A stretch of 63,996 nucleotides of DNA, the filler included, from Reclinomonas americana ATCC 50394 (Eukaryota), in the NCBI GenBank assembly GCA_048213135.1. It is 7 parts of 4 records of this genome, joined end to end, with 100 filler letters (N's around TTAATTAATTAA, not from the genome) between each part and the next. Parts side by side here need not be neighbours in the genome. Positions count along the whole stretch, not along the records: positions 25,131 to 43,048 come from PS015709.1; 6 more parts are not named here. The stretch is one strand, 5' to 3'. Of the stretch, positions 5,282 to 63,001 are shown piece by piece. Made by a program: the position numbers and the translations under genes. The number at the start of each line of letters is the position of its first letter. Within the stretch, counting starts at the first letter, position 1. The notes beneath the pieces were generated by a model. The model made no database searches, had not been told where the DNA came from, and saw only the letters and a program-made list of their open reading frames with translations.

Positions 5282-5381
5282 NNNNNNNNNNNNNNNNNNN
5301 NNNNNNNNNNNNNNNNNNNNNNNNNTTAATTAATTAANNNNNNNNNNNNNNNNNNNNNNNNNNNNNNNNNNNNNNNNNNNN
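5282..5381. other. Artificial scaffold linker (44 N + TTAATTAATTAA + 44 N); same linker at 9165-9264, 18854-18953, 25031-25130, 43049-43148, 62806-62905
   Basis: Identical 100-nt spacer with stops in all six frames, present six times. Confidence 0.97.
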
Positions 5382-9067: not shown

Positions 9068-9302
9068 GTACGTAGTGTCGTGTACGGTGGTGGTCGTGTA
9101 GTAGTAGTAGTACGTACGTAGTAGGTAAGGTAAGGGAAGGAAACGGGAAACGGAAACGGTAACGNNNNNNNNNNNNNNNNNNNNNNNNNNNNNNNNNNNN
9201 NNNNNNNNTTAATTAATTAANNNNNNNNNNNNNNNNNNNNNNNNNNNNNNNNNNNNNNNNNNNNTTCTCCCTCCTCCTCCTCCTCCTCCTCCTCACCATC
9301 AG

Positions 9303-35388: not shown

Positions 35389-38300
35389 ATGGGCACTGTT
35401 GCCTCACAAGAGCGACTCACTGATGGAGTCGTGCGCCGGTTCACCACACGCGACGATGATTGTGTGATTGAGGTTCCGTTTCTCAACACATATACACACT
35501 CTTCTTGCTCTCTCACTCACACTCTTCCTCTCTCTATCTCTCGTGCAGATCCGACGCGGCTTCATTCTCGAGTCCGGTGTCATGGGCATTGTGCACCCCA
35601 CCACACCGCTCTTTGTGTGGAGTCACAGTTGCATGACTGTCCGCCTGCCTCCCCATTTCACAGACTCTCTCTCACGCACACACAGACGCCATCTCTGACG
35701 CGATCGCCGACGCTGGTGGAGACGACCTGATCGACGCATGTGAGCTGCATGTCGACTCAGTCGGGCCTTTGCACCCGGGACAGGTGACAAGCACGAGAGG
35801 AGCAGCAGCAAACGCGACAAACAATGACACTCACTCTTCGTTGTTCGCAGGTTCTCGTCACCACTGCCGGCAATCTGCCCTTTGAGGCTGTGCTGCACAC
35901 TGGTGAGAACAGGCCTCTATCTATTCATACGCGAGCTGTGCTTCTCATTGACCAACGAACGGGCAGTGGTACCCGGGTTCGGAGAGTGTACGACCTCGGC
36001 GACGATTGGTCACGAGCTGAAGCAGTGCGTCGGTCGCGTGTTGTCGACAGCGGACGCGCATCGGCTGTCGTCGCTGGCCATGCCGCTGCTGATGATCCGC
36101 AGTGCGGCGGAGAAGGGTGCGGCGGTGGCGCCCATGGTGGCGTCGGCGTCGCCGGAGGAGTGTGCGCTGCGCATGGTGGAGGCTGTGGCGGAGTTTTTCC
36201 GATTCCGTGACGCTGCCACGGCGTGTTTGCGGCGAGTGTACTTGGTGTGCGACACGGAGCACGATTGTCGGTGTATGAGCCGTGAGGTCTGCTGCTTCTG
36301 CTTGCTCTTCTTCTGCCTCTGTTGTTGTTACTGATGGCGGCCGCACGCAGTTTGATCGCGTGGCGGCCACGCTGAGCGCTGCCGAGACCGGCGATTCCGC
36401 CTCGCCCACTCCTGCACTGCAGCGGGCGCTGCGGCGGTCTTCGTTTGTGCTTTCGCAGGTGCGTCGGATATTGTCGTGGCTTCTCACTTTTTCGCCACTC
36501 ATGCATATTGCATTGCCGTGCAGTCGGCACGAAGTGCGTGCGCCGAAATGCCGCCTGGCATAGCGCGCAGCACTGCGATGGTGCAATCGGCGACGTTGGC
36601 AGTCGCGGCGGCAGCAGCAGTGGCTGCAGCAACAACGCAGCCGACGGCAGCGGCGCCCAGTGCATCTGTCGTCATAACCGCAGCAGCACCGGCACCTGCA
36701 ACAGCACCAGCACCAGCACCAGCACCAGAGGCAGAGCGCGAACGCCCTGTGCCCGTGGTCGCCGCCGTGCCGCAGGTGCTGGTGGAGTGTTTTGGAGGCC
36801 GACAGTTGCATGCGGCTTTGCTGGGAATGTCCCTCTCCCACTCTCATACACTCACTATCGCGCGCTCAGAATCGTGAGGCCCACGGGCACCGCCAAGCGA
36901 GTGTGGCGGGTGCAGGTGCAGGCCACTGCGGTGGCGGCCGCGGGGAGACCATTGCTGGCGCTCTCCGTCGCCGATGTGGACATGATCGACTTTGGTCGCT
37001 TCCGAAGCGACTGCGCGTACTGGATCACTGCGACGCACCCAGAAGACGATGACCGACGGTTGCTGTTTTGCTGGCTCGGCGCAGCACTACCGCGGGTGAC
37101 GTTTATCTTCTCCCCCTCTCTTTCCTCAGTCTCACTCTTGTTTACTAACCTCCGATGCAATGCAGGATGCACGTGGTGCTGTCGTGTACATGGTTCCGTG
37201 GCTGGCTCGCTACCTCGAAGTACAGCACGGTCTGTTCACGGAGATGGAAGAGGAGGAGTCAGAGTTGTTCATGACATTTTTCCGGTCGTCATACTCGGTG
37301 GCGTATGCACCACCACCGCGTGCCGAGGTGGTGTTGCGCCCGCCGCCCGCGAGTGGCGTGTTTTCGTTGGACGAGCTCACCAACGGTGACATGTTCCCGC
37401 ATCGCTTGTGGCAAGTCAAGGGCAGCAACTTTGCCAGTGTGCATCACATCCCCATGATGGAGGCGCTGGTGCACTCGGGCGATGTGTTTGTGCTGGAGGT
37501 GCCGGAAGCTGTGGTGGTGCGGTTCGGCGCCACGTGCAACAGAAGAGAGCGTGCGCGCGGTATCGAGTGGGCCCTGCTGCTGCACGAACGGCGGCCACGC
37601 GTCAAGTACATGGCGTTCGGTGTGTGTACAGTGGTCGTGGTCGACGTCAATTATGTGGTTGCTCATCAGTGCGTGGTGTGTGTAGACGAGGCCAGCGACG
37701 ACTGCGAACCATTCATGAGTTTGCTGCGCAAGCACGCGCCTTCATGTCCACTGTACGCCCGCCGATCGACAGCTGCCTCTCCTGCGGGGGCTGCAGCGCG
37801 CGAACCCGATTCGTCGGCGGCGATGGAGGCACTGCACGAGTCGGCGGCTGCGGTCGTGGACGCGGTGCGGCACGACTTGGTGGTCTTGCAGTTGTACTGC
37901 GTCTCGTTTGACGACAATGGATTCCTGAGCATCGGTACACTGTGACTCGTTCTCGTGTGCGTGAGCGTCGACTGATTCCTGTTGTTGTTGTTGCTGTTGG
38001 TCACAGTCAATGTGTTTGAAGGACTGCCGTCACGCTTCATTCTCGACTCCCGCTGCTGCTACGTGTTGGACATGTGCAGTGAGCTGTGGCTGTGGGTCGG
38101 CTCGGAGGCCACCGAAGAACTGCGTCGACGATCAATGGAATCGCTACGAGTTGCGACTGAGCGGTCGAATCCCATATTCCAGTCTCGTGCATCACTAACT
38201 GTGCATCGTTGTGTGTCTGCATCTGCAGCTGTTCGGCTCGTTTTACGACTCGCATCAGTGCATGTCGACCTTTGTGGTGTTTGAGCGCGAAGAGCCGTCA

Positions 38301-40705
38301 ATGTTCAAGGCCTTCTTCTGGGACTTTCCGCTCAACTTGTTCCATCGGGGACTGGATTTTGTGATCGACGGTCGTCGGTTCTCGTCGCCATTGGTGCGTC
38401 TGTGTACGTAATGGATGTACAGTCGCCGCTATTCCTCATCTCACTCTTTCGTCTTCTGCGATGTGCAGCCGCTGGCCGCACTGGGTGAAGCGCCTCCGCC
38501 AAAGGTGAGTCGTGCAGGCAATGCAAGAGCCATGATACGCCGCTGACAGTCTGCTTTGCGTAAACGTGCAGTGGTTGCCGGCGTCCGACCTTGTCTCAGC
38601 GCAGACCGCCGCCGCTTCCGGTGTCTCGGCTGCTGCGTCGCCGGGTGTTGACGACGGAGCGCCCTCCGCCCTCCTCCTCAAGCGGCGACAGCGAGCCGCT
38701 TTTGTTCTCGTCAGTGGTTTGTGCGAATGTGTCCGGCGTATGTGCCGCGTGCTGTGTGCAAGACACCAACCGCGTCGAGTGCGCAGCGCCGGAGCCCGAC
38801 GAAGAAGACAAGCGGATGGTATTGTCGCCATTGTCGGCCATCGAGTCGGCGCTGGCCAGGAAGCGTGCCAGTGTGGTCTCGTCGCCGCACATGCAGCGCA
38901 TCGGGAGCGTGTATGTGAATCGCCGCCAGTCGGATCGTCTCCAAACCGTCAATGTCGAACAGATTCTCGACCGTGGCGACGACGCCGGTGTGGTGGAGAC
39001 GGTGGAAACGTTGGAGGTGGACGACGGTCAAGGAGCCGTGCAGGTTCTGCGTGCCACCACTCGCGTCGCTGGCGAGCGATTTAAGAAAACTCGTGCTCAT
39101 CACGTATGGCGCAGATCTGGCGATTGGACGGTGCGACACTGTGCGCGGTGCCCGAGTCCAGCTTTGGCGTATTCTATTCGGCCGAGATGTACCTCGTGCT
39201 GTACGTGTGGACCGAGGAGATGCAGATCGACACCTTCTCCACCTCGATCATGCGCGAGAACCGACAGCGTACCAAGACACACGCCTTGCTGTACATTTGG
39301 GAGGGGAAGCACTGTGGCAAGGGTGCGTGGTTGGCCTGGAAAATGGGCACCGAGACCACCGTGTCGGACCGCATTCGACAACAGACGGGCGCACTGCCGC
39401 GCATGGTTTGATTGCGCACCATTGCACCAACAGCGATGCATGCGCTCACTCGTCCCTGTGGGCCACAGAAACGCATCCACCAATTCCAGGAGCCAACACA
39501 TTTCCGACAGCTCTTCAACGGCGGCATCGTCATTCGACGGGTGCGTGTTGCATTCCGTGAAACGATGAACGGCTACTTTGCTCACTCGCGCACAGGGCAA
39601 GTTGTCCGTCCGCGAGGCCGAGTGCACGCTCGCCTCCTTGTATCACGTACGCGGAGAGACCATGGACAACACCATGGCCGTCGAGGTGGCACTGGTATGC
39701 CACCCGATGACGACCGTGCCTGCCAAGTGCCTCGTGCTGATACTCCTTGTGTGTATGCGCGCGAGCAGAGAATCGACTCGCTGAACAGCAACGACTGCTT
39801 CGTGCTGCAGACGCCAGACTGTGTGTACGCGTGGCTCGGCGTGGGCTCGAACGACACGGAGCGTGAAGTGTGCCGCGACATTCTGCCCTTCTTCATGGAC
39901 GTGAGTACCACTCGTGTGCATGGCGCGCACTGTCCTTCGTCGCTGCGCTCACCGTATTTGTGAGCAGGAGGGCGCCGATCTGCCAACAATAGAGGTGGAG
40001 GAGGGCAGGGAACCGGCCAAGTTTTGGAGCGACTTTATCGAACTCATGGGCATGGCCATGGAGCATCCTGTGAGCAGCCAGCGTCTTCTCTCTCTTTTCT
40101 GTCCACCGATGAACCTCACAATCCTCTGTGTGCGTGCGCAGAATTCCGCCGCGCTGGTGGATGAACTGCAAGCTGCCGACACTGACAAGTCGCGCTTATA
40201 CGCCTCCTCCGAGCGCTTGCGCCGCAGAGATGCACCGGAGCCGCGGCTGTACTGGTGCAGCAATGCCACCGGCAGCATGCAGGTGCATGAGGTGCTGCAC
40301 TTTTCGCAGAGCAGTCTGCGCTCGGAGGATGTGATGCTGTTGGACACGGTGTCAGAGATTTTCGTGTGGATCGGCAGCGGCGCAACACCGGAAGAGCGAC
40401 GACTCTCCATCCAGGTGGCACATGCCATGGTTCGTGCCTCTGGTCGACCTCAGCAGCTGCCCGTGCGTCTCGTGCAGGAGGGTCACGAGCCGCTGTTGTT
40501 CTCGTGCAATTTTATCGGCTGGGAGCGAAGCACCAGCGAAACGCCCGCGTGTGCGCCGGAGCCGCAGCGCAGGCGCGTGACGGGGCGAGTGGTGGAGGAG
40601 GAGGCGCCAATCATTGCCGCGTTTCCCCTGTCCCTCAAGGCGCGCGCGTGGCGGCACCTGGTGGAACAGTGTGCGCACGAGAGCGGCAAGCAGCAGCGTA
40701 CGTAA
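35389..40705 (+). CDS. Macrodomain fused to six gelsolin/villin repeats (no headpiece seen)
   Basis: Macro (~35420-36380): IEIRRGFILESGVMGIVHPT..AISDAIADAGGDDLIDACELHVDSVGPLHPGQVLVTTAGNLPFEAVLHTVVP..LKQCVGRVLSTADAHRLSSLAMPLL..LRRVYLVC. Gelsolin repeats: RLWQVKG..VHSGDVFVLE, LDSRCCYVLDMCSELWLWVG, DDGQGAVQIWRLDG..FYSAEMYLVLY, LYHVRG..SLNSNDCFVL..YAWLGVGS, PRLYWCSNATG..FSQSSLRSEDVMLLDTVSEIFVWIG..VQEGHEP..F.GW. Confidence 0.8.
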
Positions 40706-40782
40706 GTAATAAGTGAATGCATGGCGTGGGTGAGAAAACGCGCAAACTATTCATGAGACACTGATTTGGGTGTGTCTGCCGC

Positions 40783-41777
40783 TCATTCGTCTCCATCCTC
40801 GTCCTCGCCGTCATCGTCACCTCCGCCAGCGCCCTCGCCGTCGTCGTCGTCGTCGTCGTCGTCGTCTCCGAGTTCATCGTCGTCCAAGTCGAAATGCGGT
40901 CCCTCTGCGTAGTACTGGTACGCGTCCGGGTACACATCCTCCTTGATGCAGTCGGCCACCGCGTGGTGCGGGTTGTGGGTGACAAACATGCTGAAAATCG
41001 AGGCATCCTCTGCCTCATCGTCGTCGTCGTCCTGCATCAGCTCTCGTGGGCACATGCCGGGCTACGCATTGTCAGAACTGAATCCTGTCAACGGGAGGAG
41101 GTGGGAAGACACAGACAGACAANNNNNNNNNNNNNNNNNNNNNNNNNNNNNNNNNNNNNNNNNNNNNNNNNNNNNNNNNNNNNNNNNNNNNNNNNNNNNN
41201 NNNNNNNNNNNNNNNNNNNNNNNNNNNNNNNNNNNNNNNNNNNNNNNNNNNNNNNNNNNNNNNNNNNNNNNNNNNNNNNNNNNNNNNNNNNNNNNNNNNN
41301 NNNNNNNNNNNNNNNNNNNNNNNNNNNNNNNNNNNNNNNNNNNNNNNNNNNNNNNNNNNNNNNNNNNNNNNNNNNNNNNNNNNNNNNNNNNNNNNNNNNN
41401 NNNNNNNNNNNNNNNNNNNNNNNNNNNNNNNNNNNNNNNNNNNNNNNNNNNNNNNNNNNNNNNNNNTGCACACATTGCACACACGCACACACACACTTGC
41501 ACACACACACATATTCATGCAACATGCAAGACAACATGAACGCACCTTCCGTGAGTTTCTCATGCAGTTTCTCAATCTCTTGCAGATCGGCAATGAGCTT
41601 CTCCTGATCAATCTCCGCCTGTTGTGCGCGCACATAGAGAGAGAAGAGGTGAGCAACAACAACCATGGGACATGGCCATCGAAAAGACGCGCGTCACTAG
41701 TGCGTGTGAGCGATGTAGAGACAGCGGGAGGAGAAAGAGTGAGATGAGGAGGAGTGCCTCTTGTGTGTGCACACCAT
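40783..41777 (-). CDS. NAP/SET-family nucleosome assembly protein (middle exons in N-gap)
   Basis: ATG|GTGTGC intron, then AEIDQEKLIADLQEIEKLHEKL. C-terminus SIFSMF..HAVADCIKEDVYPDAYQYY plus a poly-acidic tail matches the NAP-family SFF.F / ia..Ikdd..P.Al.YY signature. Confidence 0.85.
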
Positions 41778-42166: not shown

Positions 42167-43869
42167 TTACGGAGCCGCTACACCCGTCGCTCGCTGCAAT
42201 TCCACCAGCGCAAGCACGGCAGCACTGGTGCGTGCCGACATGGGGTGGCTGGAGTCGCCGGATGCGGCGATCGCCTCAATGGCCAGCGACGGAACAGCTG
42301 CGTCGGCACTGGATCGGCGAACCATGGTGCCAGTGGTCGGTGGCTTGCCGGCNNNNNNNNNNNNNNNNNNNNNNNNNNNNNNNNNNNNNNNNNNNNNNNN
42401 NNNNNNNNNNNNNNNNNNNNNNNNNNNNNNNNNNNNNNNNNNNCTGCGCGTGCGGCTCATGGTGGGCCGCGGCACCGGTGCGCGCTTGGCGGCGGATGCA
42501 GCAGGCGCGGCCGAATGCCGACTGGCCACACTGGCCACCGAGCCCACGCTGGTGTTCAGTGGATTGCCGGTGGTGGCAGAACGACGGTGCGTCGTCGTTG
42601 TTGTTGTCGTCGGTCGCGGCGGCGCCGGTGAAGCGCGCGCGACGGGTTTTGCCGTGGTGGCAGTGGATGCTGCACTCACGCGACGCCCGCCACTGGCGCT
42701 TGTTGACCTGGTAGTGGTTGGAGTCGGAGTGCGCGCATTGGTGGTTGTCGGTGAGGCGGTTGAGGCGGCTGGTGTTACTCGACCTGAGGGAGTCGGAGCG
42801 CGCGCAGAGACCTTGGCAGTGGGCGTGGCGGATCGGCGAGTGGAAGTGGCCGAGGTGGGCGCAGGGGTGGGCACAGTCGGTGGGCGACTGGCCGGTGCCA
42901 TGGAGCTCACCGACAAGCGCGCAGACGACTGCCGCGAGGGGCCGGTGGTGGAGTTCATTGCCGTGGCGGATGTCGGTCGATCACCGGCTGGCAAAATGCG
43001 AGCAGTTGTGGCGTTGCCGATGGATCCACGCGGGCGACCCAGTGGTGTNNNNNNNNNNNNNNNNNNNNNNNNNNNNNNNNNNNNNNNNNNNNTTAATTAA
43101 TTAANNNNNNNNNNNNNNNNNNNNNNNNNNNNNNNNNNNNNNNNNNNNGCAGGCTGCAGCTTGTTACTGACACCACCACCAGCGCCGAGAATGCGATTCG
43201 TCTGCTGACTGGCACCGAGCACATGCGACGACAGCAGTCCGCCCATCGGTTGCGCCACGATGCGCTTGCCGACCACCGCGTTGAGTGCCATCTCGTCATC
43301 ATCATCGTCATCGTCGTCGTCGTCGTCATCGTCGACATCATCGTTGGGGGGAGCGCTGCTGGCTTGGTTCTCGGTGTTCTCCTCGTTCTGCTGCTGCTGC
43401 GTCATGCGCTCCATGAGCAGAGAGCTCAGTCGGCGACTCAAGCGCTTCTTGGTCGTCGAGCGTGAGGAGGGCGCGGCGGGAGAGCGCAGAGACTCGGCCA
43501 TGGGCACAGGCGACGAGTGCAGCGGCGGGCGAGGTGGTGTGCCCTTCGAGGCCGAGCGCACCAGCGCAGCGCGACTGAACAGAGGTTCCTCGTCGGTGAT
43601 GACATCCACCTCTGAGACGGAGAGGGTGAGACGACACTCACACACGCACAAGAGAGAGTATGTGTGAGAGGGTGGAGACCTTGCAGAATGCGGAGGTCCT
43701 GTATGGCGCCGGGTGAGTGGCACTCGCCAGGAGGACGAGTGTCTGCAAAGAGAAAACACCAACAACGATCGTTGAATGAGCTTCGGTGCAGGGAGAGCGC
43801 AAGAGGGGGGAGGGCGTGGACGCCAATAGTATGAGAAGTGCAACAGGCAATTAACGCACCCATAGACAT
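42167..43869 (-). CDS. Unknown low-complexity protein (S/T/P/A/R-rich with an acidic tract); spans a linker and an N-gap
   Basis: Phase-consistent splicing MSM|DTRPPGECHSPGAIQDLRILQ|EVDVITDEEPLF..., then long open S/T/A/R-rich frames ending ...ELQRATGVAAP*. The join across the linker is assumed. Confidence 0.5.
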
Positions 43870-44408: not shown

Positions 44409-47265
44409 ATGGCGCGCTCTCTTCTCCTCGCACTCCTCCTCCTCCTCCTCTTTGTGGCATGCCTCGTCACAGTCAAGGCGGCGGTCGATGAGCTGGAGGA
44501 GGCGCGTCGCCATCGTGTGTATGAAGTTGAGGTGGAGGCGACTGGGCTCTTCAGGCACAGAAACCACCGCACTCCAACGACGATCCGTGTGTCGTGGAAG
44601 GACCCAACCATCAAAACTATCGAGCAAGCAGGTGCGCGTGTGTGTGTGTTGAGTCTGCTGGTTTCGCGTGTGTATGAGGGGAGAGATAGAGAGAGAGAGA
44701 NNNNNNNNNNNNNNNNNNNNNNNNNNNNNNNNNNNNNNNNNNNNNNNNNNNNNNNNNNNNNNNNNNNNNNNNNNNNNNNNNNNNNNNNNNNNNNNNNNNN
44801 NNNNNNNNNNNNNNNNNNNNNNNNNNNNNNNNNNNNNNNNNNNNNNNNNNNNNNNNNNNNNNNNNNNNNNNNNNNNNNNNNNNNNNNNNNNNNNNNNNNN
44901 NNNNNNNNNNNNNNNNNNNNNNNNNNNNNNNNNNNNNNNNNNNNNNNNNNNNNNNNNNNNNNNNNNNNNNNNNNNNNNNNNNNNNNNNNNNNNNNNNNNN
45001 NNNNNNNNNNNNNNNNNNNNNNNNNNNNNNNNNNNNNNNNNNNNNNNNNNNNNNNNNNNNNNNNNNNNNNNNNNNNNNNNNNNNNNNNNNNNNNNNNNNN
45101 NNNNNNNNNNNNNNNNNNNNNNNNNNNNNNNNNNNNNNNNNNNNNNNNNNNNNNNNNNNNNNNNNNNNNNNNNNNNNNNNNNNNNNNNNNNNNNNNNNNN
45201 NNNNNNNNNNNNNNNNNNNNNNNNNNNNNNNNNNNNNNNNNNNNNNNNNNNNNNNNNNNNNNNNNNACAGCTTGCGCGTTCCGAGTAATTCGCCGTCTCG
45301 TTCCTTCCGCTTCTGTACCATTGCTCTGCTTGTCTGCTTTCTCTCGGTTTTCTGCTTCTTTTCTCTCTCTCTCTCTCGCCGCGCAGGGCATTGAGATCGA
45401 TGGGAGTTCGTCACAGTCCGAGAAATGCATTCTTGTTCACCGTCTCACTGCCTATCCTTTCTGCTCAGACACTGGTTTCGCCGTCTCAGCAGCGGCGCGT
45501 GGGTCTGCTCGTGCGCGGTCGTCTGCACTTGTTGTCGATCGCCGCTGACGGCTCAGATGTGGACCTTGTCGGTGAGTTTGCCCATGCACTCGTCCACTCG
45601 ATCGTTGTGCTGAAGTGTGAGTCCAGCCGAGGATTTCGCAATAACCGAACAGCTGGAGAGTGTGTTCATTCCGGCCATGGCGATGGCCATGCGTCTGCAG
45701 TTGGAGCGCAACATGCCAGAGGCGAGTATAGGTGCCTCCCCATGGCCAACCCTTTCACTGTCGCTCACTGCATTCTTTGATGCTTGCGCAGCCGACACCA
45801 GTGGAGTCTCGCTTGTCACGGCTGGAGTACCTGCGCAAGGGATTCCGCATTCCAGTGCCCGCCTTTGACACCACATTCCTCGACTTCCCTTATGCTATTC
45901 CCGGGTGGGAGTTACCAAGTATGCTCACTTTTCTCTTACATTTACCTATTCTGTATGTCGCCCTCAAACCCTCTTTCCCTCTCGCTCTCCCTTAGGTCCG
46001 ACGCTGCCAGACGAGTTCCCCTCGTTCAGCATGCGAGACAACAACAACATTACGACTTCTCATCAACCTATTATTGTCCAAGCCGCCACGGAGCGCTGCA
46101 TGGAGGAACCAGAGGTGCGTGCAGATAGTCAACTTTGGAATTCCGCAAGTTTTCTTACCTCTCCGCGTGCATCGCGAAGCTCATCGCCTGGTACTTTGTG
46201 GTGCGTCACTCACTCGCAAGAAGAGCTCGCCGTGTGTCACTGTCTCCTCACCCTTCTACGTAGCCACCCTCCACCGTGCACGAGCGCTTCTTGCCAGCAC
46301 CGTTGCCGCCACCGCGTGAATGGGCCGGCGATGTTGATGGACTCGTATCACTTCGCTTGCCTGGACCCTTCGAGCGCATGCGCTATCGCCACCCGCAGCC
46401 GGCTCCAGCACCAGTGCAGCGCGGCTTCATCATGGACTCGGGTCGCGGAGAGCCGCCGCTTGTCGAGTGCACCGTGTGCGGATCGCGATTTGTCCGCGCC
46501 CATCCACCGCCACCACTCGGTCCGCGAGTGCGCATTCTCATTGCGGCGTGGTGCGGTGATGTGGAACGCCAGGCGCGTGATAATGTGCGCCAGACGTGGA
46601 TGCGCTACAGCAACGTGTACCACGCACAGCTCAACCCGCACGGCTCACTACAAGTGATCTTTGTGATGGGCCGTCCTCGCTCTGCCGCCACACGACAGGC
46701 GCTGCACGAGGAGTACTTGCAGTACGGAGACATGGCGCTCCTGGACATCCGCGAGAACATTTACGACGGAAAGAACCTGGAGTGGTCAAGAATGGCGCAC
46801 GACACGTACGGGCGCAGCCAGACGCTGCGGTACGTTGGGCGAGTGGACGTGGACGTGTTTTTCCGTCCTCTGAAGATGGAGCGCGAGTTGCGACGGCTTC
46901 CACGGGAGCGTCTGCTGTGGGGCCATACCATCTTTGGGTATCGTGGACGACGGATGTTCGAGTATCCTCTCGGGCCGGCGTACTTTGTCAGCTGGGATCT
47001 GGTGGTGTTCCTGCGCCGCACGACTTCAATATCGGCAGTCGACCGGATGGGAAGCGAAGACTGCGGCTTCACGCACTACTTTGTCAAGTCCGACCTGCCG
47101 GTGCACTTGGCCTCCGACGTGCGATTCCACGATCTGCAGGGCCACCGCCGTGGCCTGTTTGTCGAACCAACGACCGACAAGTCCATCAACATTCATCGTG
47201 TGCGCGACCTGGCGCAGCTGCAAATGTTTATGCAGCGCTTCCCTGACGGGTTGTACGCTGTTTAG
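44409..47265 (+). CDS. GT31-like (Galactosyl_T) glycosyltransferase, tandem copy 1 (exon 2 probably in gap)
   Basis: Signal peptide MARSLLLALLLLLLFVACL. Catalytic exon: RDNVRQTW, IFVMGRP, LHEEYLQYGDMALLDIRENIYDGK, YVGRVDVDVF (DxD), YPLGPAYFVSWDLV, GSEDCG. Confidence 0.8.
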
Positions 47266-61573: not shown

Positions 61574-62805
61574 ATGGCTGACGCTGAGATCGGCCAGCGC
61601 CTCGCCTCACGACTCGGGCACAACGGTTCGTACCACCCCGCACACCCACCCACACCAGAGCAAGCATGCATCTGCAACAGTAGACGTCCAGAAAACAGTG
61701 TGAAAGTTGTTGATGCACATTCACATCAACGACCTGCACCACGCACACTTTTTTCCTCCCCCGCCGCCTGCTCATCTCTGTGACACAACAGAGCGCGAGG
61801 AACGCGATGCAGCAGTGAAAGCGCTCTTCCAGATGTTCCAAAAGGTCGACTCGATGACCGACGCCGAGATGCTGGTGATCTGGAAGGGCCTCTTCTATGG
61901 TGAGTCCTCTCCTTCTCTCTTTCTCTCTCTCTCGCCTCTTGTCACCCTCTTTCTCTCTCTCTCTCTCTCCATCAGTTTCCTGCTCTCTCTTTTGTTTTCC
62001 TATCGCTTCACTTCTCTAAGACTTCCTCTCTTTGTCTCTCCTCCCTCACTCCCTCCCCCCCCCTCCCTCACCTGCCCTCAGCCATGTGGTTCTCCGACGG
62101 AGTCCCCGTCCAACGCGAGCTCGCCCAGCGCATGGCCCAGCTGATGCATGCATTCCCGACACTGGAGCTGACCATGCGCTTCGCGGAGACATTTATGCTG
62201 ACCATGCAACGCGAGTGGCCGCGACTGGACCACCTGCGTCTGGACAAGTACTACCACCTGGTGGAGTGTGTGGTGCGGGAGCTCTTGTCGCTAGTGTGCA
62301 CGGCCGAGGAGACCTTCCGCGAGCAGCAAGATGGTGATGATGACGAGGGAGATCGTCAGCTGAACCCGGTGGCTGTCGATGTGGCCAATCTGTTGTACGA
62401 GCACGTGTTCCGCGCCACGGCAGAGCCGCTGCGTAGTGACGTGGAGGATGCTGCGTTGGTGGTGCATGGCGACGAGGAGGCGGAGGAAGCCGTCGTCGAT
62501 GACGATGAGGATGAGGATGAGGAATACGACGATGAAGTTGAGGAGGAGGAGGAAGAAGAGCAGCCAAAGAAGAAGAATAAGAACAAGGGCAAGAAGGGCA
62601 AAAAGGGCAAGCGTGGCACCTCTGACGAAGGTTTGTTGCTGCAGCATCCACTTGCTCCTCCACCACCGCCATCTCACTGTGTGTGCTCAGAGGCCGAGCA
62701 AGGCTTGAGTCGCGCCCAGATGCGTCAGCTGACGAAGCAACGCATTGCCGCCAAGCGCAGACAACGCAAAGTGGTGAGCGACCTTCGTGATCGATACCCG
62801 CGATT
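61574..62805 (+). CDS. RRP1: Ribosomal RNA processing protein 1 (Nop52/RRP1), 3' end in linker
   Basis: RLASRLGHNE..RDAAVKAL..MLVIWKGLFYAMWFSDGVPVQRELA..FMLTMQREWPRLDHLRLDKYYHLV is the Nop52 signature. Confidence 0.92.
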
Positions 62806-63001
62806 NNNNNNNNNNNNNNNNNNNNNNNNNNNNNNNNNNNNNNNNNNNNTTAATTAATTAANNNNNNNNNNNNNNNNNNNNNNNNNNNNNNNNNNNNNNN
62901 NNNNNCGTGTGCCTTGGCAGTCTCAGGAGAGAGAGAGAGAGGGAGTGCGTGTGTTGTGATAGTGTCTGGAAACTGAGGTATGCCCTTCGCGTGTGTCTCA
63001 C

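Follow-up and report, generated by a model that had tools for sequence, protein, structure and literature searches.

A candidate macro-gelsolin gene

In Reclinomonas americana ATCC 50394, positions 35389-40705 of the window (the whole 63,996-nucleotide stretch of DNA that we analyzed) encode a homolog of macro domains, an Ala/Pro-rich linker, and a homolog of gelsolin, in that order and on the plus strand. The three parts and the coordinates of the initial annotation held up, as did the start (ATG at 35389) and the stop (40703-40705); the coding sequence is not in a single frame but is split over about 21 short exons.

Our 21-exon GT-AG model of 35389-40705 splices to an open frame of 1312 codons (3939 nt with no internal stops). 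The introns are 55-83 nt long. All 20 are of the form GT..AG, with 19 CAG acceptors and one TAG acceptor, and the T fraction is 0.28 in introns versus 0.21 in exons. GC3 is 0.74 across the model and exceeds GC2 in 19 of the 21 exons (all but exons 7 and 13), and the codon score of the chosen frame is the best or tied for the best in 20 of them (all but exon 13). The predicted protein has about 1312-1318 residues; the range reflects an alternative donor for intron 7, which would add six codons. Rfam had no matches in the whole window. Upstream of the start codon, a second in-frame ATG lies at 35236, and GC content is flat across the three codon positions from 35236 to 35389. A possible 62-codon open reading frame ends 225 nt upstream of the ATG at 35389.

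The N-terminal part is homologous to MacroD/YmdB-type macro domains

To describe the N-terminal part, we used a macro profile of about 177 positions that was built locally from 116 YmdB-type proteins, all of which are listed under PF01661. This profile is narrow, as identity to E. coli YmdB is about 70% or more for every member. Residues 28-208 of the spliced protein (exons within 35389-36286) align to positions 6-167 of the profile with 41.7 bits. In contrast, the best of 2000 shuffles of 250 residues from the macro region scored 7.4 bits. The N-terminal domain is thus recognized by a macro profile, albeit a locally built one, as the initial annotation expected. What that annotation called a complete macro fold stands as sequence homology over the full length of the domain. 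By homology, we conclude that the N-terminal part (about residues 20-210) is a MacroD/YmdB-type macro domain.

Five exons contribute to this domain. Exon 1 (35389-35472) holds the start codon and the first strand; its Met-Gly N-terminus fits the pattern for N-myristoylation. Exon 2 (35549-35627) contains the counterpart of the GDIT...NAAN stretch of YmdB-type macros, which is degenerate here. Exon 3 (35686-35783) is the best-conserved part and is followed by exon 4 (35851-35902), and exon 5 (35967-36286) forms the C-terminal half, colinear with profile positions 82-167. Without the other exons, exons 3 and 4 together score 28.6 bits, and exon 5 alone scores just 4.7 bits. The alignment spans the join between exons 1 and 2 and is unbroken over all four proposed junctions, which validates those introns. 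A different junction between exons 2 and 3 (35614/35664) is possible as well (40.3 versus 41.8 bits).

Pfam's Macro model had no matches at E ≤ 1 on 18 single exon pieces, which were unspliced, so that the domain was split over five exons. In the ESM Atlas, the nearest named clusters to exon 5 were ThsA_Macro and Macro (0.85-0.86), which is below the 0.9 level and serves as a lead only. A phmmer search of PDB with exon 5 gave serine acetyltransferases alone (E = 0.3-0.8), which we read as chance matches.

The macro domain has lost most of its signature residues

Among the 67 near-invariant columns of the profile (at least 97% conserved across the 116 proteins), the Reclinomonas domain has the consensus residue at 23, although such a narrow, YmdB-like profile overstates how much macro domains in general share. 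The substitutions include D11 to F, N25 to T, G30-G33 to S, H, N, and A, D35 to S, Y126 to A, and G127 to V. In YmdB naming, these sites are the Asp of GDIT, the Asn of NAAN, the Gly loop (GGGG), the Asp that follows it, and the Tyr-Gly of loop 2. Just G124 is kept from the Gly-x-Tyr-Gly of loop 2, and the profile alignment places a six-residue insertion in that loop. Some positions that line the pocket are kept: for example, an A-I pair follows the Gly loop, A-x-P precedes loop 2, and loop 2 has Gly155 and Pro160.

In YmdB-type macros, the replaced residues include the Asp that contacts adenine, the Gly-rich loop that holds the phosphate and ribose, and the catalytic Asn and Asp. Because these signature residues are replaced, catalysis by the macro domain seems unlikely, and binding of ADP-ribose seems doubtful. 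The link between ADP-ribose signalling and actin remodelling that was proposed in the initial annotation is weakened by the same replacements.

The C-terminal part is homologous to six-repeat gelsolins

Pfam's Gelsolin model (PF00626) exceeded its cut-off of 21 bits on 3 of the 18 exon pieces: exon 11 (38007-38149, 21.4 bits), exon 19 (39769-39900, 25.9 bits), and exon 21 (40142-40705, 41.8 bits). We also built a local profile of the villin core, with 822 positions, from 45 villin-type representatives. Both halves of the core align to it: G1-G3 (model residues 365-725) match profile positions 24-343 with 114.8 bits, and G4-G6 (model residues 847-1258) match positions 352-716 with 283.5 bits. 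As annotated, six gelsolin repeats follow the linker, and they are in the canonical order G1-G6; G1-G3 are far more diverged than G4-G6.

The villin-profile alignment assigns the exons as follows. G1 starts in exon 8 (36870-37095) and ends in exon 9 (37166-37619), which also holds most of G2. In exon 10 (37686-37934), G2 ends, an insert follows, and G3 begins; exon 11 lies within G3; and exon 12 (38229-38393) completes it. Next is the linker between G3 and G4 (model residues 726-846), which the profile does not match. Within this region (38469-38714), exons 13 (38469-38504) and 14 (38572-38644) and their introns are proposed, with junctions that the alignment does not cover. Exon 15 (38715-39043) contains linker and the lead-in to G4, and the second domain of the profile match begins at model residue 847. 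G4 is in exon 16 (39115-39405), which is also covered by the tblastn alignments described below. Exons 17 (39469-39540) and 18 (39596-39694) contain the end of G4 and the start of G5, exons 19 and 20 (39968-40069) contain G5, and exon 21 contains G6 and a 55-residue tail.

This tail does not appear to be a villin headpiece: the headpiece model (VHP, PF02209) had no match at E ≤ 1 on exon 21, and profile positions 717-822 were unmatched. By homology, then, the C-terminal part (about residues 340-1258) is a six-repeat gelsolin core that lacks a headpiece.

Exon 21 had 1965 phmmer matches at E ≤ 0.001 in the protein library, with a best identity of 42%, and three loci at 36-37% identity in a metagenome scan. 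With tblastn, these distant loci (L001-L003) align contiguously to model residues 890-1255 at 30% identity. They encode intronless six-repeat gelsolins to which the first 334 residues of the model do not align.

One gene or two?

We think that there is about an even chance that the locus is a single, intron-rich, protein-coding gene of about 21 exons, encoding a pseudo-macro domain, an Ala/Pro-rich linker, and a headpiece-less six-repeat gelsolin core. In such a protein, the macro domain (about residues 20-210) would be joined by a disordered linker of about 125 residues to G1-G6 (about 340-1258).

The Ala/Pro-rich linker, which was noted in the initial annotation, is present at 36351-36786. 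It consists of exon 6 (36351-36458, 36 codons) and exon 7 (36524-36786), which contains a (GCACCA)x8 repeat at 36680-36728. Exon 7 may instead end at 36804, as an alternative donor for intron 7 at 36805 is in frame, adds the six codons mentioned above, and scores higher (3.8 versus 1.7).

We scored the splice sites of the three introns that would join the two parts with a matrix that was trained on 16 other introns of the same model, and we ranked them among the 46 GTs and 38 AGs within 36200-36900. Putative intron 5 (36287-36350) is the weakest link of the fusion. Its donor scores 1.6 (rank 21 of 46), its acceptor scores 4.1 (rank 4 of 38), and its T fraction is 0.38; if it is retained, the frame reaches a stop at 36335. 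Putative intron 6 (36459-36523) has the highest-ranking donor of the region (8.3, rank 1 of 46) and an acceptor of rank 3, and the acceptor before exon 8, at 36869, has rank 1 (11.6). All three introns score within the leave-one-out range of the 16 others. The splice-site scores are compatible with a fusion.

We rejected frame continuity as evidence for the fusion, since 192 of 200 shuffles of 36287-36869 also give a stop-free GT..AG path. More informative is the frame of the G1 exon (36376-37389), which has no ATG between the upstream stop and G1; its first Met is inside G1. This exon must therefore be spliced to an upstream exon. Splice sites that resemble those of the other introns, and a G1 exon with no start codon in its frame, lead us to infer a putative single transcript.

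It is possible, if somewhat unlikely, that the locus holds two neighbouring genes in the same orientation and that the fusion is an artefact of gene modelling. The macro gene (exons 1-5) would then end at 36335, within a retained intron 5, and a headpiece-less gelsolin gene would start at either of the in-frame ATGs of exon 7 (36548 or 36578), and its 5' UTR would comprise exon 6 and intron 6. Besides those two ATGs, the weak donor of intron 5 and the ease with which shuffled sequence yields an open path across the junction fit with this explanation. So do the coding scores of exon 6, where the chosen frame is weakly the best (1.7 versus -9.8 and -3.9), and of exon 7, which are neutral in all three frames. 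The nearest gelsolin relatives lack macro domains (see below), and the possible 62-codon frame 225 nt upstream of 35389 hints that this genome may have short spacers between same-strand genes. But just about 210 nt lie between the stop and the next start, and the 3' end of one gene, the promoter of the other, and the well-formed intron 6, with the region's best donor, would all need to fit there. Also, the sequence past 36335 is GC-rich and A-poor (the A fraction of exon 6 is 0.09), the acceptors at 36350, 36523, and 36869 rank 4, 3, and 1 of 38, and the G1 exon cannot itself start translation.

Comparison to other gelsolin-like and macro proteins

With its six repeats in the canonical order and a long linker between G3 and G4, the C-terminal part resembles gelsolin, villin, and advillin, and it is 29-42% identical to its nearest representatives in the library over G6. 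N-terminal additions are common in this superfamily: flightless-I has LRRs, and protists have PH, FYVE, and CH forms. Among the 150 nearest representatives (34 + 61 + 55), a Pfam scan identified CH, PH, FYVE, LRR, RING, WW, UBR-box, DUF2252, and DUF285 additions but no Macro (0/150), in agreement with the initial annotation, which knew of other additions to gelsolins but not of macro. Most of these representatives (109/150; 26/34, 51/61, and 32/55) have a villin-type headpiece, which the Reclinomonas protein lacks.

Other searches for the combination were also negative. The local macro profile reached at most 9.3 bits on the 150 representatives, in P0080, and Pfam did not find Macro in that protein. 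A phmmer comparison of the N-terminal 334 residues to the 150 best gelsolin representatives matched P0023 only, through low-complexity sequence. Neither exon 5 nor exon 21 had a match in word-indexed searches for longer proteins, and the metagenome scan with exon 5 found no loci, so these protein and metagenome searches did not identify an ortholog with the same architecture. Nor did we find a macro-gelsolin or macro-villin fusion in the titles and opening lines of abstracts among the papers listed in our literature searches. Macro plus gelsolin is probably a new domain combination, of moderate interest.

Relative to MacroD/YmdB macros (PF01661), the N-terminal domain is colinear but has the altered signature residues and the insertion in loop 2. 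E. coli YmdB, which is an O-acetyl-ADP-ribose deacetylase, stands alone, while the Reclinomonas domain would be part of a cytoskeletal protein. Other parallels may be macroH2A1.2, macroH2A2, and GDAP2, whose macro domains are non-binding or non-catalytic and lie within larger proteins. They also have an altered pocket in a multidomain protein, presumably as a structural or interaction module, but their partner domains are histone or CRAL-TRIO, instead of actin-binding.

Potential functions

By analogy to other six-repeat members of the family, the gelsolin core would bind, sever, and cap actin filaments. The macro domain would lack the catalytic residues and most of those that hold ADP-ribose, and it most likely serves in regulation or targeting without catalysis (as a "pseudo-macro" domain) rather than as an eraser of ADP-ribose. 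The gelsolin family acquires inputs through N-terminal domains such as LRR, PH, FYVE, and CH, so a macro-type addition, if correct, would be a new class of input and a rare instance in which an actin regulator carries a macro domain. Should the domain no longer bind a ligand like ADP-ribose, it would be a clean natural example of a macro fold that was reused as a non-enzymatic module.

Less likely still than two genes is a real fusion whose macro domain continues to read a ligand of the ADP-ribose type, such as free or protein-linked ADP-ribose, O-acetyl-ADP-ribose, or ADP-ribosylated actin. Such a protein would couple NAD+-derived signalling, or damage from toxins, to severing and capping, and hence to filament turnover. 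The homology does extend over the whole domain, and some positions of the pocket are kept (the A-I pair, A-x-P, Gly155, and Pro160). Also, ADP-ribosylated actin caps barbed ends, and clostridial actin toxins use gelsolin-actin complexes as substrates. However, the positions of the adenine-contacting Asp, the Gly-rich loop, and the catalytic Asn and Asp are all replaced, loop 2 has the six-residue insertion, and we did not find a conserved partner or context. Furthermore, MacroD-type domains remove ADP-ribose from acidic residues (Asp/Glu esters) and not from the Arg and Thr of actin that the toxins modify (Arg177 or Thr148). The initial annotation's idea of a guard against actin-modifying toxins found no support in this analysis.

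A more specific version, which we consider quite improbable, is that the fusion is real and that its remodelled pocket recognizes an ADP-ribosylated protein of the cytoskeleton (actin or another one), which would make the fusion protein a sensor that brings severing and capping to modified filaments. If so, ADP-ribose signalling would be wired directly to actin turnover in a cell-autonomous way, at filaments that are modified by toxins or ADP-ribosylated endogenously.

Finally, we see very little chance that the locus is decaying into a pseudogene or was misassembled. The strong divergence of G1-G3 and of the macro domain would fit with this, as would the many runs of N in the window. But there are no Ns from 34771 to 41122, the spliced frame is open over all of its 3939 nt, and in nearly all exons GC3 exceeds GC2 and the chosen frame has the best codon score or ties for it.

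A macro-type domain precedes a six-repeat gelsolin core

The initial annotation described a macro-type domain followed by a gelsolin core on the plus strand at 35389-40705, and our analysis agrees with this overall picture. The window is eukaryotic DNA (~55-60% G+C) with numerous N runs; 34771-41122 is free of them. On the plus strand of 35389-40705, no one frame is open throughout: macro-like and gelsolin-like translations appear in alternating frames, with short T-rich GT...AG stretches between them. We built a gene model by hand and checked it with a script. In this model, 20 introns of 55-83 nt separate 21 exons, and every intron is GT..AG (19 end in CAG and one in TAG). The spliced frame of 3,939 nt encodes 1,312 residues, with zero internal stops. 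The G+C content of the exons is 0.63, and GC3 of the spliced model is 0.74. GC3 exceeds GC2 in 19 of 21 exons (exons 7 and 13 are the exceptions), and by codon usage, the chosen frame scores best or joint best in every exon but exon 13 (20/21).

Among 18 single-exon translations, Pfam's Gelsolin (PF00626) was above the gathering score in exon 11 (the third repeat; 21.4 bits), exon 19 (the fifth; 25.9 bits), and exon 21 (the sixth, plus the tail and the stop codon at 40703-40705; 41.8 bits), and there was no villin headpiece among the Pfam matches. An exhaustive phmmer comparison of exon 21 to 1.84 billion representatives gave 1,965 matches with E ≤ 0.001, and the best 150 of these are 29-42% identical. 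From 45 of the best 150, with lengths of 790-870, we made a villin-type profile of 822 positions. Profile positions 24-343 align to model residues 365-725 (repeats 1-3, 114.8 bits), and positions 352-716 align to residues 847-1258 (repeats 4-6, 283.5 bits). Together with the Pfam matches, these alignments bear out the six annotated repeats. The headpiece end of the profile has no counterpart in the model. Because the alignments are unbroken across the junctions, the introns between exons 8 and 12 and between exons 15 and 21 are validated. Residues 726-846 (the end of exon 12, exons 13-14, and the start of exon 15) do not match the profile, and the junctions there are proposed only. Three distant metagenomic loci encode intronless six-repeat gelsolins, which are ~30% identical to model residues 890-1255 and 21-24% identical across repeats 1-3 (residues ~328-726).

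For the N-terminal domain (exons 1-5, 35389-36286), Pfam gave no match to the exons one by one, and phmmer with exon 5 against the PDB gave only chance-level matches. In the ESM Atlas, the nearest clusters to exon 5 were ThsA_Macro and Macro, at only 0.85-0.86, which is a lead. We then used homologs of E. coli ymdB, of which we gathered at least 120, all with PF01661 and all at ~70% identity or higher. A profile of this YmdB type, built from 116 of the 120 listed homologs (150-200 residues long), aligned its positions 6-167 to residues 28-208 of the spliced model, with 41.7 bits. When the 250 residues tested were shuffled 2,000 times, the highest score was 7.4 bits. Exons 3 and 4 alone scored 28.6 bits, and exon 5 alone scored 4.7 bits. 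The margin over the shuffles indicates that, as judged from its sequence, the N-terminal domain is a real homolog of MacroD/YmdB-type macro domains across its whole length, so its identification as a macro domain passed the profile test. The unbroken alignment validates the first four introns.

The macro domain is degenerate

The predicted macro domain has lost many signature residues. It is identical to the YmdB-type proteins at just 23 of the 67 columns that are at least 97% conserved among the 116 sequences, but this family is narrow, so part of these "conserved" columns are specific to YmdB. D11 (the aspartate of GDIT) is replaced by Phe, N25 (the second asparagine of NAAN) by Thr, G30-G33 by Ser-His-Asn-Ala, and D35 by Ser. 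In loop 2, Y126 and G127 are replaced by Ala and Val, and there is a six-residue insertion. In MacroD-type hydrolases, the catalytic Asn/Asp are among the positions replaced here, which also hold the adenine, diphosphate, and distal ribose. Given these replacements, hydrolase activity is unlikely, and canonical ADP-ribose binding is doubtful. The initial annotation had proposed a link between ADP-ribose signaling and actin remodeling, possibly a guard against toxins of bacterial prey; the homology behind that proposal holds, but the loss of the signature residues weakens the functional prediction.

One gene or two?

Close homologs of exon 5 or exon 21 were not found in a word-indexed protein collection or in metagenomic contigs. 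The open frame that leads from exon 5 into exon 8 is no evidence of fusion: when the joining stretch was shuffled 200 times and GT..AG introns of 50-90 nt were allowed, one or more stop-free paths arose in 192 cases. The linker (exons 6-7; 36351-36458 and 36524-36786) has near-neutral codon scores, and exon 7 includes a (GCACCA)x8 repeat. Alternatively, a separate macro gene would stop at 36335 and a gelsolin gene would start within exon 7, at the ATG at 36548 or 36578. The chance paths, the linker's codon scores, and the weak donor of intron 5 (score 1.6, rank 21 among GT sites in 36200-36900) are all compatible with two genes. However, this would leave only ~210-240 nt between the stop and the second start, with a well-formed intron inside. 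To score the splice sites, we trained position matrices on the 16 other introns of the model, the majority of which are validated by the profile alignments. The six site scores of introns 5-7 (36287-36350, 36459-36523, and 36787 or 36805-36869) are all within the leave-one-out range of the training introns. Within 36200-36900, the donor of intron 6 ranks first of 46 GT, and the chosen acceptors rank 1, 3, and 4 of 38 AG. The T fractions of these introns (0.38, 0.35, and 0.28, versus 0.21 in exons) are intron-like. Furthermore, the frame of exon 8 (36870-37095), which begins the first repeat, runs back to 36376 without a stop and contains no ATG upstream of that repeat's interior, so exon 8 must be spliced to upstream sequence. 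Overall, we favor a single gene with fair confidence, and the fused macro-gelsolin architecture is probable.

If so, the domain combination is probably new to the gelsolin superfamily. The initial annotation considered macro unusual as an addition to gelsolins, and this fits the nearest gelsolin-family representatives (the best 150 of the 1,965 matches): none has Pfam's Macro at E ≤ 0.001 (0/34, 0/61, and 0/55, or 0/150), and neither the N-terminal 334 residues of the model nor the YmdB-type profile (top score 9.3 bits) matched any of them. Instead, their added domains are CH, PH, FYVE, LRR, RING, WW, UBR-box, DUF2252, or DUF285. Among the papers listed in our full-text literature searches, none had a title or opening lines of abstract that indicated a macro-gelsolin fusion.

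Start codon and neighboring features

There is another in-frame ATG at 35236, but 35389 is the likelier start codon, because GC1, GC2, and GC3 are flat between the two. The predicted N-terminus (35389-35409, plus strand) is Met-Gly with Ser at position 6, and this Met-Gly-x-x-x-Ser arrangement fits the N-myristoylation pattern. If the start codon is correct, then the predicted protein could be membrane-anchored.

Just upstream, a 25-nt tandem repeat (34648-34875; a run of 20 N with ~4 copies to either side) is probably intergenic. An acidic-tailed ORF of 62 codons (34976-35164, plus strand) ends 225 nt before the ATG at 35389; it could have arisen by chance, or it could be an upstream ORF or a small gene, and the longer frame 34772-35161 had no Pfam match. 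Downstream of the gene, an ORF on the minus strand (40783-41061) is convergent with it and ends 78 nt from the gelsolin stop codon; this ORF has a long tail rich in Asp and Glu and likewise had no Pfam match.

Elsewhere in the window, one pattern, two runs of 44 N with 12 bases between them, occurs identically six times (5282-5381, 9165-9264, 18854-18953, 25031-25130, 43049-43148, and 62806-62905) and looks like regular masking or scaffolding, not biology. Overlapping plus-strand frames at 25139-27758, with matches to PB1 (PF00564) at 32.3 bits and to protein kinase (PF00069) at up to 43.4 bits, are probably one intron-split PB1-kinase gene. Five ORFs with Galactosyl_T (PF01762, 46-54 bits each) at 46264-47262, 48961-49956, 51968-52966, 54812-55930, and 58386-59408, all on the plus strand and ~2.7-3.6 kb apart, are galactosyltransferase-like genes arrayed in tandem, and N runs separate some of the copies. 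Finally, an ORF at 61904-62803 (plus strand) matches the nucleolar protein family Nop52 (PF05997, 77.9 bits).
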